Of a stretch of DNA of 64,000 nt, positions 6,201-59,080 are shown one piece after another. Positions within the stretch are counted from its first letter, which is position 1. Each line of letters opens with the position of its first letter. The DNA is from Acidobacteriota bacterium (GTDB lineage: Bacteria > Acidobacteriota > Thermoanaerobaculia > Gp7-AA8). The position numbers were made by a program, and so were the translations under genes. The stretch lies in assembly GCA_003223645.1 (NCBI GenBank), contig QHVT01000023.1, forward strand, positions 32,960-96,959, given 5' to 3'. The notes beneath the pieces are model-generated. The model ran no database searches and was not told the origin of the DNA. It saw nothing but the letters and a program-made list of their open reading frames with translations.

Positions 6201-6297
6201 GAATTGAGAATTGAGGATTGAGGAAATGGGATTGAGATGATTCGCGGATCGGGATGAGGACGAAATTCCTCAATCCGCAATCCACAATCCTCAATCC
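6201..6297. repeat. Fold-back microsatellite, 7-mer GATTGAG / CTCAATC
   Basis: Imperfect tandem heptamers followed by their reverse complement between rpsS and rplV. Confidence 0.85.
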
Positions 6298-6314
6298 CGC
6301 CGAAAGGCGGCTAT

Positions 6315-6704
6315 ATGGAAGCAACAGCCACTCTGAAGTACTTGAAAGCCTCGCCGCAGAAAGTGCGACTCGTCGCCGATCTCGTGCGCGGCAAGAAGGT
6401 CGAAGAAGCGCTCGCCATTCTCCGCTTCACGCGCAAGGCGTCGGCGAAGGATCTCGAAAAGCTCCTCCGCTCGGCGATTGCCAACGCGGAGAACAAAGAG
6501 GACGCGCCCGACGTCGACGAGCTGGTCGTCTCGAAGATCTACGTCAACGAAGGTCCGCGTGAGAAGCGCATCCAGCCGGCGCCGATGGGACGCGCTTACC
6601 AGATTCAGAAGCGCAAGGCGCACGTCACCGTGCATGTGTCGGACGAAGTCAAGGCGGTCAACGAGCGGAGCGGCGGCAAGGGCCGCGCGCGCGCCCGTAA
6701 ATAA
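6315..6704 (+). CDS. rplV: 50S ribosomal protein L22
   Basis: SPQKVRLVADLVRG, SAIANA; operon position. Confidence 0.98.
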   Translation: MEATATLKYLKASPQKVRLVADLVRGKKVEEALAILRFTRKASAKDLEKLLRSAIANAENKEDAPDVDELVVSKIYVNEGPREKRIQPAPMGRAYQIQKRKAHVTVHVSDEVKAVNERSGGKGRARARK

Positions 6705-6716
6705 CGGAGGCTAATC

Positions 6717-55660: not shown

Positions 55661-56348
55661 TGAAGGCAGAAGGCAGAAGGCAGAAGGCAGAAGTGAGAAG
55701 TTGCGCTTCCGCGTGCGGTTTGCTTGCTCACTTCTGCTTTCTGCCTTCTGCCTTCTGCCTTCATTCGGTTGTCGCCAAAAGATGGCCAACCAACCCCGCT
55801 ACGATCCTCTCGAAGCCAGCGACTTCTTCACCGACGGCATGTCCGCGCGTCCGCGCATCGCCGGCACCGTCGCGCGCGGTGAGCTCGTCACGAACGAGTT
55901 TTTCTCGACCGGAAAAATGGGCGGACGAGACGGAAACGGATTTCCGGTTCCGGTCGACGCCGCGCTGCTCGATCGTGGCAACGAGCGCTTCAATATTTAC
56001 TGCACGCCGTGCCATGGCCGGCTCGGCGACGGCAAGGGCATGATTCCGTCGCGCGGCTACCGCCATCCGCCGACGTTCCACAGCGACGCGTTGCGCAACC
56101 AGCCGACCGGGCACTTCTTCGACGTCATGACCAATGGATTCGGCGCGATGCCGCAATACGGAACGATCATTCCGCCGCGCGACCGCTGGGCGATCATCGC
56201 CTACATCCGCGCGCTGCAGCTCAGTCAGAACGCGACCGCGGCGGACGTTCCGTCCAACGTGAAACTCGAAAGTGGAGGACAGGCAATCCTGCCTGTCCCG
56301 CCGAATGGACAGGCGGGATCGCCTGTCGTCCACGGAGGCGCGCGGTGA
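55647..56348 (+). CDS. actE: Alternative complex III monoheme lipoprotein cytochrome c
   Basis: SD GGAGG; SFGC lipobox-like then [27 protein letters not shown]. Confidence 0.9.
55659..55765. repeat. GAAGGCA fold-back inside the actE signal-peptide region
   Basis: Same element as 37557-37643. Confidence 0.92.
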
Positions 56349-57547
56349 CCGTCGCACCGGAACAGCGGCCCGCGCCCGTCACCGGCATCGCGCGCGCGCA
56401 AGTGCCGGCGCTCATCGTCGGCATCATCGGCGTCGCCGTCGCCGGCTTCGGCTTCGTCACCAACGCGCCCGAGTTTTACCGGGCGTGGCTGCCGGCCTAC
56501 CTCTTCTGGTTCCTCATCGCCGCGGGCTCGATCGCCGTGATGTGTCTGCAGTACATCACCGGCGGCGAGTGGGGCGTGTTGATCCGCCGTCCGCTCGGCG
56601 CGGCCTCGCGCACGATTCCGCTGTTCATCCTCTTCGCGATCCCGCTCGTCCTCGGGCTCGAGCACATTTACGTCTGGGCCGACAAGGCCGTGGTCGCGCA
56701 CGACGTGCTGCTGCAGAAGAAACAGCTGTACCTCAACGCGACGGGATGGATCATTCGCGGCCTCGTCTTCTTCGCGCTCTGGACGTTGTGGGTCTGGCGT
56801 ATCCGCGTCCTCTCGCTCGACTTCGCGAAAACGCGCTCGCCGTTCACCGATCTCTCTCGCCGCCGCTGGAGCGCGAGCGGTCTCCTGATGATCGTCCTCA
56901 CGCTGTCGCTCGCATCCGTCGACTGGGTGATGTCGCTCGAGCCGAAGTGGTACTCGACGATGTTCGGCATCTCCTTCACCGTCGAGTCGGGACTCTCGGC
57001 CTTCGCATTCGTCACGCTCTTCCTCGTGCTGCTGTCGTCGACGCCGGCGATGCGCGACATCCTCAAGCCGTCGCACTTCCGCGACCTCGGCAACCTGATG
57101 CTCGCGTTCACCATGTTGTGGGCGTACACGAACTTCTCGCAGTTCCTGCTGATCTGGTACGGCAACATCAAGGAAGAGACGCCTTACTACCTCAAGCGCA
57201 TGCACGGCGTGTGGGGATGGATGGCCACGGCGCTGATCCTCTTCCACTTCTTCCTGCCGTTCTTCCTGCTGCTGATGCGCCCGATCAAGGACCATCCGAA
57301 GACGATCGGCGTCGTCACCGTCATCATCCTCTTCATGCGTTTCGTCGACGTGTACTGGCTCGTCGGGCCGGCGCACTACGCGACGATTCCGCCGACGTTC
57401 TGGATCACGATCTTCGCGTTCCTCGGCATCGGCGGGCTGTGGCTCGCCGCGTTCATCTGGCAGCTGAAGGGGCAGACCATCATTCCGATTCACGAGACCT
57501 GGGTCGAAGAGGCCATCCGCGAAGGAGCGCTGACTCGAAATGCCTGA
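56345..57547 (+). CDS. actF: Alternative complex III membrane subunit (GTG start)
   Basis: ~10 TM; DWVMSLEPKWYSTMFG, DLGNL, SQFLLIWYGN. Confidence 0.92.
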   Translation: MTVAPEQRPAPVTGIARAQVPALIVGIIGVAVAGFGFVTNAPEFYRAWLPAYLFWFLIAAGSIAVMCLQYITGGEWGVLIRRPLGAASRTIPLFILFAIPLVLGLEHIYVWADKAVVAHDVLLQKKQLYLNATGWIIRGLVFFALWTLWVWRIRVLSLDFAKTRSPFTDLSRRRWSASGLLMIVLTLSLASVDWVMSLEPKWYSTMFGISFTVESGLSAFAFVTLFLVLLSSTPAMRDILKPSHFRDLGNLMLAFTMLWAYTNFSQFLLIWYGNIKEETPYYLKRMHGVWGWMATALILFHFFLPFFLLLMRPIKDHPKTIGVVTVIILFMRFVDVYWLVGPAHYATIPPTFWITIFAFLGIGGLWLAAFIWQLKGQTIIPIHETWVEEAIREGALTRNA

Positions 57548-58091
57548 GCACATCCAGTATCAGGACGACGAGCTGTTCAATCCTGAGACGCATCACGAGG
57601 AATCGGATGTGCCGATCAAGCCGCTCTTCTGGGCGATCGGAATCTTCATCGTCTTCGCGATCGTCACGCATCTCGTCCTCGCGTGGATGTACGAGGGATT
57701 CCGCAAAGGAGAAGAGAAGCGGATGGATCCGCCGTACACGCAGGTCGCCTTGCCGCGTGACGCGTACGTCCCGAAGAACCAGCCCCTGCTCCAGCCGTTC
57801 CCGCGCGAAGGCCACGCGCCGCGCGAAGACACGCCGGTGACCGACCTCGTGCAGATGCGCGCGCGCGAAGAAACGCAGCTGCATTCGTACGGCTGGGTCG
57901 ATCAGCAAAAAGGCGTCGTGCACATCCCGATCGAAAACGCGAAGCAGATCATGCTCCAGCGCGGCTTCCCCACGGCCACCGCACCACCGCCGCCCGCGCC
58001 ACCCAGTGGAGCGGCGCCCGCTTCGGGCGCCGGCCCTCGCGAGAAACCGGCGGCCGAAGCGGCCGCCGCTCCACACGGAGGCGCGCAATGA
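57540..58091 (+). CDS. Single-TM ACIII-associated protein
   Basis: HEESDV, TM, YGWVD..GVVHIPIENAK; between actF and SCO. Confidence 0.8.
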   Translation: MPEHIQYQDDELFNPETHHEESDVPIKPLFWAIGIFIVFAIVTHLVLAWMYEGFRKGEEKRMDPPYTQVALPRDAYVPKNQPLLQPFPREGHAPREDTPVTDLVQMRAREETQLHSYGWVDQQKGVVHIPIENAKQIMLQRGFPTATAPPPPAPPSGAAPASGAGPREKPAAEAAAAPHGGAQ

Positions 58092-59080
58092 TCGCAACGC
58101 TCGCGCTCTTCGCGCTCATCACGTCGGCGACACCGCCCGACCTCCCGGGCCCGGTCTCGATCCAGCAGAAGCTCAACACGCAGATTCCGCTCGATCTGAT
58201 GTTCCGCGACGAGACGGGAAAGATCGTCCGGCTGCGCCAGTACTTCGGCAAGAAGCCGGTCGTGCTCGACTTCGTCTACTACCGCTGCCCGATGCTCTGC
58301 CCGATCGTCCTCGATGGGACGACCGAGGCGCTGACGAATCTGAAATACGACATCGGAAAAGAGTTCGACGTCATCACCGTCAGCATCGATCCGCGCGACA
58401 AAGTCGAAGACGCCGCGCGGATGAAAGAGAAGTACATCAAGCGCTACGGCCGCCTCGACTCCGCGCCCGGCTGGCACTTCCTCACCGCGAACGAGACCCC
58501 GATCAAGCAGCTCGCCGACGCCGTCGGCTTCCAGTTCGCGTATGACGCGAAGATGGACCAGTTCGCGCACGGCGCCGCGCTCTTCGTCCTCACCCCCGAC
58601 GGCCGCACCTCGCGCTACTTCTACGGCTTCGAATACAAGCCGCGCGACTTGCGGCTCGCGATTTTCGAAGCGTCGCAGGGAAAGATCGGCGGCGTCGTCG
58701 AACAGGTCCTCCTGCTCTGCTTTCACTACGACCCGAAAGTCGGCAAGTACAGCCGCGACGCGATGATCTTCGTGCGCGCCGGCGGCGTGACGACGATGCT
58801 GGCGCTGGGTGGATTCATTTTCGTGATGATTCGTAAGGAGCGGATGGCAGATGGCAGACGGCAGATGGCAGAGAAGCGGATGGCAGATGGCAGACGGCAG
58901 ATGGCGGAACAGATGGCAGATGGCAGACGGCAGATGGCGGAAGACGCCACTGCTGACTCTTCGCCATCCGCCATCTGCCATCCGCCATCCAATTCGCCAT
59001 CCGCCATCAGCCATCCGCCATCCGACCCGCCATCCGCCATCCGCCATCTGCCATCCGACCGGGAGGGCGGCCGCCCGTGA
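58088..59080 (+). CDS. SCO1/SenC family copper chaperone with repeat-derived tail
   Basis: CPMLC, SIDPRD, WHFLT, FAH, C-terminal TM. Confidence 0.92.
   Translation: MIATLALFALITSATPPDLPGPVSIQQKLNTQIPLDLMFRDETGKIVRLRQYFGKKPVVLDFVYYRCPMLCPIVLDGTTEALTNLKYDIGKEFDVITVSIDPRDKVEDAARMKEKYIKRYGRLDSAPGWHFLTANETPIKQLADAVGFQFAYDAKMDQFAHGAALFVLTPDGRTSRYFYGFEYKPRDLRLAIFEASQGKIGGVVEQVLLLCFHYDPKVGKYSRDAMIFVRAGGVTTMLALGGFIFVMIRKERMADGRRQMAEKRMADGRRQMAEQMADGRRQMAEDATADSSPSAICHPPSNSPSAISHPPSDPPSAIRHLPSDREGGRP
58841..59057. repeat. Triple-block GATGGCA fold-back read in frame in SCO
   Basis: 3 left and 3 right blocks; no stop until 59078-59080. Confidence 0.92.

Follow-up and report, generated by a model that had tools for sequence, protein, structure and literature searches.

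Tandem-unit fold-backs in an Acidobacteriota genome and a putative selfish hairpin element with an Avd-like protein

Fold-backs in the window and at orthologous sites

The window is the whole stretch of DNA that was analysed, 64 000 nucleotides of contig QHVT01000023.1 (assembly GCA_003223645.1). The original prediction placed about 20 tandem-unit hairpin loci in it, some with a single arm, and TRF lists arrays at these places. Sixteen of the 23 loci named are two-armed fold-backs of tandem 6–9-nt units (6201, 8314, 11016, 16430, 16928, 27667, 31416, 37557, 39585, 44094, 48844, 50220, 53341, 53540, 55659 and 58841), four are one-armed (26251, 43113, 47948 and 51971) and two (29208 and 29238) form one composite. 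At the remaining locus, 34150, a partner arm was looked for and none was clear. The features are listed below; no strand is assigned to any of them.

6201..6297: fold-back, GATTGAG family; S19–L22 spacer, 3 nt past the stop codon
8314..8377: fold-back, CGGTTGCG (8-nt) family; S17–L14 spacer
11016..11110: fold-back, 9–10-nt units (TAGGAC core plus 3–4 unpaired variable bases); L6–L18 spacer, stop codon overlapped
16430..16497: fold-back, GTGCTGG family; S13–S11 spacer
16928..17008: fold-back, GATGGCA family; S11–S4 spacer
26251..26274: solo arm, TTCTGCC ×3.4
27664..27780: GC-rich fold-back, 6-nt units GCCCGA / CGGGCT; −115.9 kcal/mol, z −11.5
29208..29352: composite, a partnerless CGGTTACG arm abutting a GATGGCA-type element with a weak 5′ arm and a 3′ arm of 7 units
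31416..31493: fold-back, CGGTTGCG family
37559..37641: near-perfect fold-back, GAAGGCA family; −75.6 kcal/mol, z −13.8
39585..39813: fold-back, CGGTTGCT/G family; the 156-nt loop contains another small palindrome three times (39638–39753)
43113..43189: one-armed array, CAGCACC ×11
44094..44174: fold-back, GAACGCA family; upstream stop codon overlapped
47945..47992: one-armed array, GTCCTA-core 9-nt units; z −0.9
48843..48921: fold-back, 8-nt units AGCCTCCC / GGAGGCCT, C-rich arm first
50220..50319: fold-back, GATGGCA family, unequal arms (9.1 versus 4.0 units)
51969..51996: one arm, ACCGCGCA ×3.5, within a 1001-aa ORF
53343..53453: fold-back, GAAGGCA family; copy 1 of a 199-nt tandem duplication
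53542..53652: fold-back, GAAGGCA family; copy 2 of the same duplication
55662..55762: fold-back, GAAGGCA family; upstream stop codon overlapped; −85 kcal/mol, z −13.6
58843..59057: fold-back, GATGGCA/GATGGCG family, ~14 units per arm; the largest in the window

RNA folding gives long hairpins at 11 of 12 loci, with z scores of −3.2 to −13.8 relative to dinucleotide shuffles; for the one-armed array (47940–47996) z is only −0.9. It is doubtful that the arm at 51969..51996 belongs to the hairpin system. The units had been described as unrelated in sequence, which overstates their diversity: many are one-mismatch neighbours (GAAGGCA, GAAAGCA, GAACGCA, GAATGCA and GATGGCA/GATGGCG), and single arrays often mix them. 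The window's own elements carry no ORF. The earlier statement that the window contains no four-helix-bundle gene is correct, with none of the eight PF05635 matches falling on contig C40.

Comparison of orthologous spacers revealed empty alleles, and the refutation that the original prediction had allowed for, elements conserved in place with no empty sites, therefore fails. The closest relative (G018) lacks the elements at 6201, 8314, 16430 and 16928, where the flanks are 88–92% identical. The 6201 site is empty (a 15–20-nt spacer) in most congeners, the closest one included, and the 16430 site is empty in G018 and G008 (9 and 15 nt, respectively). At 16928 the site is empty in G018 and is occupied by the CTCGCAG family in G003. 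In seven congeners the S17–L14 spacer is occupied by three other unit families or by a plain hairpin, and in six it is empty (2–28 nt); with this genome counted, four unit families or a plain hairpin are found there in eight species. In the L6–L18 spacer four other hairpin elements lie at the same point in four congeners, which gives five elements in five species. These filled and empty sites, together with the repeated colonization of the same spacers, demonstrate turnover. No target-site duplication was found at the five filled/empty sites compared. We note that an assembled RNA-library contig runs across the element at 16928..17008 with zero differences.

Census, arm structure and placement in the genome

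TRF finds 2686 short arrays in the genome (5–9-nt units, at least 2.8 copies). Among these there are 633 array/reverse-complement pairs no more than 400 nt apart (median gap 21 nt), compared with 47 same-orientation pairs; the figure of 633 fold-backs is a lower bound because the TRF pairing missed the one at 31416. Two genomes simulated with a fifth-order Markov model contained 367 and 368 arrays and no pairs, inverted or direct. The excess over a composition-based chance model, on which the original prediction had made itself depend, is thus clear (633 fold-backs versus none in either simulated genome).

The largest families, GATGGCA/GATGGCG, comprise 132 fold-backs. Arm polarity is nearly invariant inside families (82:1, 67:1, 64:0, 48:1, 41:1, 41:1 and 33:0), and the G-rich strand runs 5′ to 3′ into the loop in 468 elements versus 90 with the opposite arrangement. 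Family copies have a common order of variant units and sharp outer ends. Variant units are not mirrored between the arms, the arm lengths are nearly independent (r 0.14) and hybrid elements with two different arm families occur. The variation within units is position-specific and identical in both arms, and in the 9-nt family pairing is limited to a 6-nt core; these two features fit a repeated recognition motif. Nested foreign palindromes aside, no loops are shared among the short elements. The hairpin loops of this genome frequently hold other, intruding palindromes.

Most of the fold-backs (513 of 633) are intergenic. In 422 co-directional cases 59% start at −3 to +10 nt of the upstream stop codon and 21% lie near the next start, and where the spacer has 300 or more free nt the values are 39 and 5%, respectively; the gene calls are from our own crude caller, and start-codon distances are less certain than stop distances. 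A T-run follows the stem in 32 of 1222 tails, compared with 20 in the control, and 56 of 710 convergent spacers (7.9%) are occupied versus 111 of 718 divergent ones (15.5%). Rho-independent terminators were rejected on this basis, T-runs being scarce and convergent spacers less occupied than divergent ones. A CRISPR array was also rejected, since the units abut head to tail and are not separated by unique spacers.

Four-helix-bundle genes inside fold-backs

The original prediction raised a link between such repeats and four-helix-bundle genes, and this link holds here, in congeners and across phyla. Seven of the eight PF05635/TIGR02436 genes of this genome are enclosed in the loop of a tandem-unit fold-back. 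The seven gene-bearing elements have seven different units, all of which recur in dispersed short-loop families (83, 42, 42, 19, 10, 10 and 9 fold-backs), and the sharing of units between gene-bearing and gene-less elements is thereby established. The window elements accordingly look like gene-less kin, much as the earlier idea of non-autonomous members had it. No gene-bearing copy of the GATGGCA/GATGGCG families was found in this 96.7%-complete draft, and no difference in arm purity was seen between families with and without a gene-bearing copy.

The full element is 420–610 nt long and has a consistent architecture. Its 5′ arm, of ~4–5 tandem units, is usually G-rich and includes AG; the ORF that follows encodes a four-helix-bundle protein (PF05635/TIGR02436) of ~115–135 aa, and the 3′ arm consists of reverse-complement units. 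Homologues of the protein include 23S-IVS proteins and DGR Avd. All 14 proteins tested match PF05635, and five of them also match bAvd; the PDB relatives 2GSC and 2RLD have five chains each.

Four-helix-bundle genes were found in all 35 congeners. Inverted tandem arrays bracket 23 of the 29 best PF05635 matches in congeners; two of the six misses are cut by contig ends and two more have arms that fail the strict test. The association spreads across phyla. In a sample of 80 loci (Acidobacteriota, Planctomycetota, beta-, gamma- and deltaproteobacteria, Bacillota, Chloroflexota, Gemmatimonadota, Patescibacteria and others) both inverted tandem arms are present at 45; the other 35 comprise 25 with at least one tandem arm, six with a simple inverted repeat (~2 units) and four with none, so that 70 of the 80 have at least one tandem arm. 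In Nevskia soli the arm of the resident four-helix-bundle gene has 17 forward and 18 reverse matches, and in a gammaproteobacterial MAG the corresponding numbers are 70 and 90. Many of these matches are in close +/− pairs, and the reversed-pattern control gave none. In 75 gene-bearing elements the strand running into the loop has G over C by 206 to 101.

Protein and unit diverge together. Among 64 proteins, units differ by at most one mismatch in 12 of 15 same-period pairs that are at least 70% identical, compared with nine of 600 pairs that are 40–50% identical. Two 71%-identical proteins, one from an acidobacterial and one from a betaproteobacterial MAG, have their unit in common. The arms thus travel with the gene, although the co-divergence could be plain co-inheritance, without specificity. 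Two gene-bearing elements are syntenic in congeners, which indicates that such elements can stay in place over the long term and need not be actively moving.

The HUH/RAYT, GIY-YIG and reverse transcriptase (RT) leads of the original prediction yielded nothing linked to the fold-backs. The single PF01797 (HUH Y1) match in the genome (32.9 bits, C4:53122) has no short arrays within 500 nt, and a search of the fold-back loops for a transposase found none. PF00078 RTs are found in 18 of the 35 congeners (12 of the 25 whose completeness is 90% or more), with no match in the other 17. The RTs of this genome are of the group II intron type only and lie at contig ends, away from the four-helix-bundle genes.

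Interpretation and comparison with known systems

The sharing of units with the arms of four-helix-bundle genes points to a widespread, barely described selfish hairpin element. Each gene lineage has its own unit, and each genome has tens of short-loop hairpins with that unit. We judge it probable, if only slightly so, that this putative element is pan-bacterial, with a REPIN–RAYT-like organization built around an Avd-like protein, and that the fold-backs of the window are its gene-less majority. We count in favour of this the travelling of the arms with the gene and the descent by copying, rather than local slippage, to which the polarity, the shared variant order, the sharp outer ends and the simulations point. 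It counts against it that we know of no catalytic domain in the four-helix-bundle protein and that no transposition was seen. The elements would settle in intergenic spacers, preferably a few bases past a stop codon, where host operon transcription would read through them. An oligomer of the four-helix-bundle protein may recognize the tandem units cognate to it, with the nucleic acid single-stranded or in hairpin form, and may promote their spread or retention via host replication and repair enzymes, as RAYT serves REPINs. The classical 23S rRNA IVS may be an instance of this element that sits in an rRNA hairpin. The unique loops of the short elements do not support copying of whole short elements; nor is origin by internal deletion supported, since these loops resemble the edges of gene-bearing loops no more than their middles (p 0.71).

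The crowding of elements at stop codons and within ribosomal-protein operons, with an RNA-library contig spanning one of them, would also be expected of REP-like transcript or DNA structures selected by the host for mRNA 3′-end protection, as RNase III sites or to modulate termination and re-initiation just past stops. The hairpins would then evolve by slippage and concerted evolution, and the four-helix-bundle gene would be a small, separate invader with a preference for hairpin loops. Other palindromes often invade such loops in this genome, 23S IVS elements sit in rRNA hairpin loops (PMC4990558), and certain spacers are filled in all species examined. We nevertheless consider this account unlikely. 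Were the gene invading hairpins that the host already had, the arms would not accompany it across phyla, and the empty orthologous spacers of close relatives, as short as 2 nt, imply a host without need of hairpins there. Wobble-compatible mismatches number 306 on the sense strand versus 430 on the antisense strand, which gives no sign of selection on a sense-RNA stem, and the near-independence of the arm lengths also speaks against it. Ordinary microsatellite slippage with chance inverted neighbours in a GC-rich genome is hardly credible. Copy number does differ between arms and between relatives, and PMC4692102 cites an over-representation of heptamer repeats across many bacteria, but slippage is refuted by the excess of inverted over direct neighbour pairs, the fixed family polarity and the lack of pairs in simulated genomes, and the gene-family link across phyla also stands against it.

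Alternatively, the arms might be written anew at each event, a short template being used to add tandem units at each 3′ end of a break, in a telomere-like manner or by abortive twin priming on element RNA, perhaps with the Avd-like protein assisting a polymerase; joining of the ends would then enclose filler DNA or a captured gene. This would explain the strand-symmetric polarity, both in the census (468 versus 90) and in the G and C counts of the 75 gene-bearing elements, as well as the 6–9-nt units, the near-independent arm lengths, the unmirrored variant units, the unique loops, the lack of target duplication and the hybrid two-family elements. DGR cDNA synthesis does require Avd (PMC10053308). 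The order of variant units common to family copies speaks for copying of an existing arm instead, PF00078 RTs were found in only about half of the congeners although all carry four-helix-bundle genes, and this genome has only group II intron type RTs at contig ends. We know of no such arm-writing activity in bacteria, and we regard writing anew as quite improbable. A broader proposal makes the four-helix-bundle protein the sole dedicated factor of a new mobile-element class without a nuclease, transposase or RT gene. At a break, arms would be written as tandem copies of a short template that extend each 3′ end, telomere-like and with the G-rich strand facing the loop, and would be closed around filler or cargo; the same process would yield 23S IVSs, heptamer ‘microsatellites’ and, by recruitment, DGR Avd; we think this very unlikely to be correct.

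REPIN–RAYT systems consist of REP doublets and an HUH Y1 transposase. The elements preferred here resemble them in having a protein gene bracketed by inverted repeat copies and tens to hundreds of gene-less intergenic hairpins of that repeat, in the occurrence of several pairs per genome that differ in sequence, in the lack of target duplication and in gene copies that may persist in place across species. The dispersed hairpin doublets here match in sequence the repeats on either side of a protein gene in their own genome, with the four-helix-bundle gene replacing RAYT. Unlike RAYT, the protein is a ~120-aa four-helix bundle and not an HUH enzyme, the lone PF01797 match being unlinked, and the arms are tandem 6–10-nt units in place of a single 20–40-nt palindrome. 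MITEs are likewise small gene-less inverted-repeat elements that presumably rely on a coding relative, but here there is no target-site duplication (five sites), no transposase in the loops and no conservation of loops between copies. DGR Avd has a homologous fold, with matches to the bAvd profile in five of the 14 proteins and pentamer-forming relatives in the PDB; however, no adjacent DGR reverse transcriptase was found, and the RTs of the genome are of the group II intron type and lie elsewhere.

The 23S IVSs with an S23p ORF (Leptospira, Coxiella) share the protein family, the size class and the ORF within an inverted-repeat stem; the seven gene-bearing elements elsewhere in this genome combine the PF05635/TIGR02436 ORF with long-stem inverted repeats. 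The Coxiella IVS is described as 428 nt long; its ORF is flanked by stem-forming terminal inverted repeats and preceded by two to three tandem heptamers, variable in number between strains (PMC4990558). In 23S IVSs generally, RNase III excises the stem from the transcript. The elements here lie in mRNA spacers, whereas the IVS lies in a 23S rRNA hairpin (helix 25 or 45). No insert is present in the 23S gene here (2974 nt for 2925 model positions), and the contig that carries it has no PF05635 match. In the literature searched, tandem-unit arms as a rule and gene-less satellite families are not described for IVSs.

Intergenic tandem heptamers, often in convergent inverted pairs, are common to the present genome, the Xanthomonas GGGAATC repeats and cyanobacterial STRRs. 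GGGAATC is not among the 60 families here, and the STRR units probably differ as well. In the available part of PMC4692102 the Xanthomonas heptamers are intergenic and G-rich, with 70–75 inverted pairs per genome; the repeat type is kept between species while the length varies, and the heptamers are taken for G-quadruplex motifs, a gene link not being mentioned in that part. XCC0516 of X. campestris is a PF05635 protein.

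Number and anatomy of the fold-backs

Each fold-back consists of a tandem array of a 6–9-nt unit, a loop and the reverse-complement array, and is named here by its first coordinate in the window. TRF located the tandem arrays of the original prediction at the coordinates it had assigned to them. Of the 23 named loci, 16 are two-armed, four are one-armed, two make up a composite and one is unclear. Long hairpins were obtained for 11 of the 12 window loci that were folded, with z between −3.2 and −13.8. Across the 6.38-Mb genome, in 51 contigs, there are 2686 short arrays, from which 633 pairs of an array and its reverse complement at most 400 nt apart were formed (median gap 21 nt), compared with 47 pairs in the same orientation. 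The period is 7 in 406 of the 633 pairs, 8 in 150, 6 in 64 and 9 in 13. Two genomes simulated with a fifth-order Markov model contained 367 and 368 arrays and not a single pair of either kind. The fold-backs are real and lie far beyond chance expectation. The figure of 633 is a lower bound for the genome, because array pairing overlooked at least one true element (31416).

The order of the two arms is constant for each unit family (82:1, 67:1, 64:0, 48:1, 41:1, 41:1, 33:0 and so on). The G-rich arm is the 5′ arm in 468 elements versus 90, a rule that is true of both strands since the structure is an inverted repeat. The outer ends are sharp and prolong the palindrome; units at the inner ends are degenerate. 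Within a family the order of variant units is shared between copies; the loops of the copies differ and show no kinship. A typical arm measures about 32 nt (median 4.4 units), the lengths of the two arms are nearly independent (r = 0.14, with a difference of at least 7 nt in 44%) and 89% of aligned stem positions pair. Variation within the unit is position-specific and equal in both arms, and pairing in the 9-nt family is limited to a 6-nt core. Median arm length is 32–34 nt for periods 6, 7 and 8 and 42 nt for period 9, and is steadier than the number of units per arm (5.7, 4.6, 4.2 and 4.7 for periods 6, 7, 8 and 9); one unit per pentamer subunit is a weak idea. A hybrid on another contig (G000:C4:134960) has GATGGCA units in its 5′ arm and TGCCTTC (GAAGGCA-family) units in its 3′ arm, so that one hairpin can combine arms of two families. 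We also note a 199-nt tandem duplication (90% identity) at window 53282–53657, each copy of which contains a complete GAAGGCA fold-back.

A four-helix-bundle gene between fold-back arms

The genome has eight matches to PF05635 (23S_rRNA_IVP), the 23S-IVS/Avd-like four-helix-bundle family. The original prediction held that no such gene lies in the window, and indeed none of the eight is on the window's contig; its suggestion that these genes are often flanked by tandem units was borne out, as seven of the eight lie exactly between inverted tandem arrays. These seven gene-bearing fold-backs are 430–540 nt long, each with a different unit, and their start and stop codons are at or in the arms. 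The proteins match TIGR02436 and the PDB entries 2GSC (XCC0516) and 2RLD, with five chains each; all 14 aligned proteins match PF05635 and five also match bAvd. Apart from one weak AbiEi match, PADLOC gave no defence-family match among the 14 proteins. The eighth PF05635 match (L007, G000:C8:43916-44104), possibly a decayed copy, is partial (profile positions 4–66) and has no tandem arms; downstream of it is a gene whose product has Ice_binding and He_PIG domains.

The units of all seven gene-bearing fold-backs are also those of dispersed short-loop families, comprising 83, 42, 42, 19, 10, 10 and 9 fold-backs. No gene-bearing copy was found among the GATGGCA/GATGGCG families of this genome (132 fold-backs), and one congener has a gene-bearing fold-back with a unit of this kind (L065).

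The gene is present in all 35 genomes of the genus, with 1–9 matches per genome, and in 120 of the 201 genomes sampled from the phylum, a tally that is the only use made of G094 and G187. Of the 29 best loci in congeners, 23 are bracketed by inverted tandem-unit arrays, with very different units. Two of these 23 loci, L056 and L066, come from unpublished genomes (G031 and G002, respectively); they are included in the 75 strict elements described below, and the congener count is 21 of 27 without them. Among 80 loci drawn from many phyla, 45 are bracketed in the same strict sense and 25 more have at least one tandem arm (three of these end at contig ends); six show a short inverted repeat, roughly two units long, and four show neither, two of the latter being Bacteroidales. 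AG occurs in the 5′ unit of 58 of the 75 strict elements and its mirror CT in that of 14, and G outnumbers C in the 5′ units (206 versus 101). Unit identity is predicted by protein identity, with 12 of 15 pairs at ≥70% versus 9 of 600 at 40–50%. The arm of a gene-bearing element recurs 35 times in Nevskia soli and 160 times in a gammaproteobacterial MAG, with many recurrences forming close +/− pairs; the reversed control yielded none.

The reading we consider best supported is that of a selfish hairpin element of wide distribution, which has an Avd-like four-helix-bundle gene, is accompanied by many satellites that lack the gene, and resembles REPIN–RAYT in its organisation. No HUH gene linked to fold-backs was found in the genome. 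The genome's reverse transcriptases are of group II intron type (three genes with RVT_1 and GIIM, at G000:C42:3098, C22:17 and C37:11988, two of them at contig ends), and no reverse transcriptase was found in 17 of the 35 congeners. The loops were not recognisable as gene remnants, loop halves showing no closer match to the edges than to the middles of gene-bearing loops (p = 0.71, at low power). Decay of the families without a gene-bearing copy was rejected, as pairing and purity do not differ. With regard to other cargo, the longest frames of eight intermediate loops gave no Pfam match, and the remaining large 'loops' are ordinary genes between two neighbouring fold-backs.

Genomic position and turnover

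With genes called by a crude purpose-made caller (4657 genes, 85.6% coding), 513 of the 633 fold-backs are intergenic, occupying 12% of co-directional, 15.5% of divergent and 7.9% of convergent spacers. The start lies within −3 to +10 nt of the upstream stop codon in 59% of 422 co-directional fold-backs, and 21% are that near the next start; for co-directional spacers with at least 300 free nt the values are 39% and 5%. A T-run follows only 32 of 1222 fold-back tails, against 20 in the control, and the fold-backs are therefore not terminators. Selection for a stem in the sense RNA was likewise rejected, wobble-type mismatches in co-directional contexts numbering 306 on the sense strand and 430 on the antisense strand. 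We read this difference as composition bias, given the abundance of A and C on the sense strand, and as neutral on action at the DNA level. Fold-back orientation relative to replication, judged by GC skew, gave a weak signal (354 versus 301, p = 0.04) and was dropped; GC skew in this draft genome departs from its usual relation to gene orientation.

Filled and empty sites, which the original prediction had proposed to compare, are both found. The closest relative (G018, flanks 88–92% identical) lacks the elements at 6201, 8314, 16430 and 16928, where its spacers are 15, 11, 9 and 26 nt long. An RNA-library contig crosses the 16928 element unchanged, which is compatible with read-through of the element. 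In contigs from two RNA runs, 16921–17017 is replaced by 19–22 other letters; these contigs are probably from relatives (likeness threshold 93) and hint at empty alleles. The spacers compared are as follows.

Fold-backs in named spacers of the window, and the S17–L14 spacer in the genome studied (G000) and other genomes
S19–L22, S17–L14, L6–L18, S13–S11 and S11–S4 spacers: five window fold-backs
S17–L14 spacer, G000 (window): CGGTTGCG units
S17–L14 spacer, G013: AGTGCTG units
S17–L14 spacer, G003 and G014: GTTGCTG units
S17–L14 spacer, G007, G008 and G015: GTTGTC-type units
S17–L14 spacer, G002: plain hairpin
S17–L14 spacer, six species: 2–28 nt long

The S17–L14 insert always follows the stop codon and precedes the ribosome-binding site, and no target duplication was found at it in the species compared. 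In the L6–L18 spacer, each of five species has a different hairpin element. Two gene-bearing elements are at the same place in some congeners, with other hairpins there instead in others. The unpublished G002 (L016) was used in the S19–L22 and S17–L14 comparisons and the unpublished G024 supplies one outgroup spacer for S19–L22; none of G002, G031, G024, G094 and G187 is the sole basis of any claim.

Related systems and neighbouring repeats

The Coxiella IVS is described as having a terminal stem of 28 bp, which RNase III cuts, and 2–3 tandem heptamers ahead of the S23p ORF (PMC4990558), Xanthomonas as having 70–75 convergent GGGAATC array pairs, which were reported to show no link to mobile elements (PMC4692102), PF05635 genes as inserted within cas operons (PMC3936711), and Avd, similar to PF05635, as essential for DGR retrohoming (PMC10053308). 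The TAACTGA direct repeats of Beggiatoaceae differ in arrangement from the fold-backs (PMC4679880). No paper linking the gene family to tandem-unit arms and to satellites without the gene was found among the open-access papers searched; a remark in the original prediction suggests that some note on the gene and the repeats exists.

The finding connects facts that have stood apart for decades, namely the 23S rRNA intervening sequence ORF, the bacterial heptamer excess, the Xanthomonas inverted heptamer pairs and the origin of Avd. It also assigns the large PF05635/TIGR02436 family a concrete role that can be tested, as the partner of a cognate hairpin repeat. Should the four-helix-bundle protein drive their spread, the hairpins would constitute a mobile system that lacks any known recombinase; otherwise, they would still be a major, fast-turning-over source of stem-loops, stable and placed directly after stop codons in essential operons.

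No intervening sequence was found in the contig's 23S rRNA gene (G000:C40:69-3042), about 30 kb upstream of the window. Loops common to several fold-backs were traced to a separate palindrome of about 96 nt, which starts GTCATCCTGAGC, ends GCTCAGGATGAC and occurs at 191 loci in the genome, mostly outside fold-backs. It is often nested in other inverted repeats and sometimes in fold-back loops (for example, at G000:C4:134960), and short forms of it are present in the S19–L22 spacer of G007 and G016 (L014 and L018). The loop of the 39585 fold-back contains a small GC-rich hairpin three times in tandem (window 39638–39753, stem GGGCAGGTT / AACCTGCCC). Hairpin loops seem to be preferred as landing sites by other hairpin elements. 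At window 62918–63215, a 41-nt unit with the palindrome TGTCAATTTGACA is present in 7.3 copies of 90% identity, an arrangement that resembles iterons or an array of binding sites and stands outside the fold-back system. Intergenic 43-nt (2 × 21–22 nt) tandem repeats with the motif TTGATTCGCGAGACAA form two blocks at window 24432–24856.
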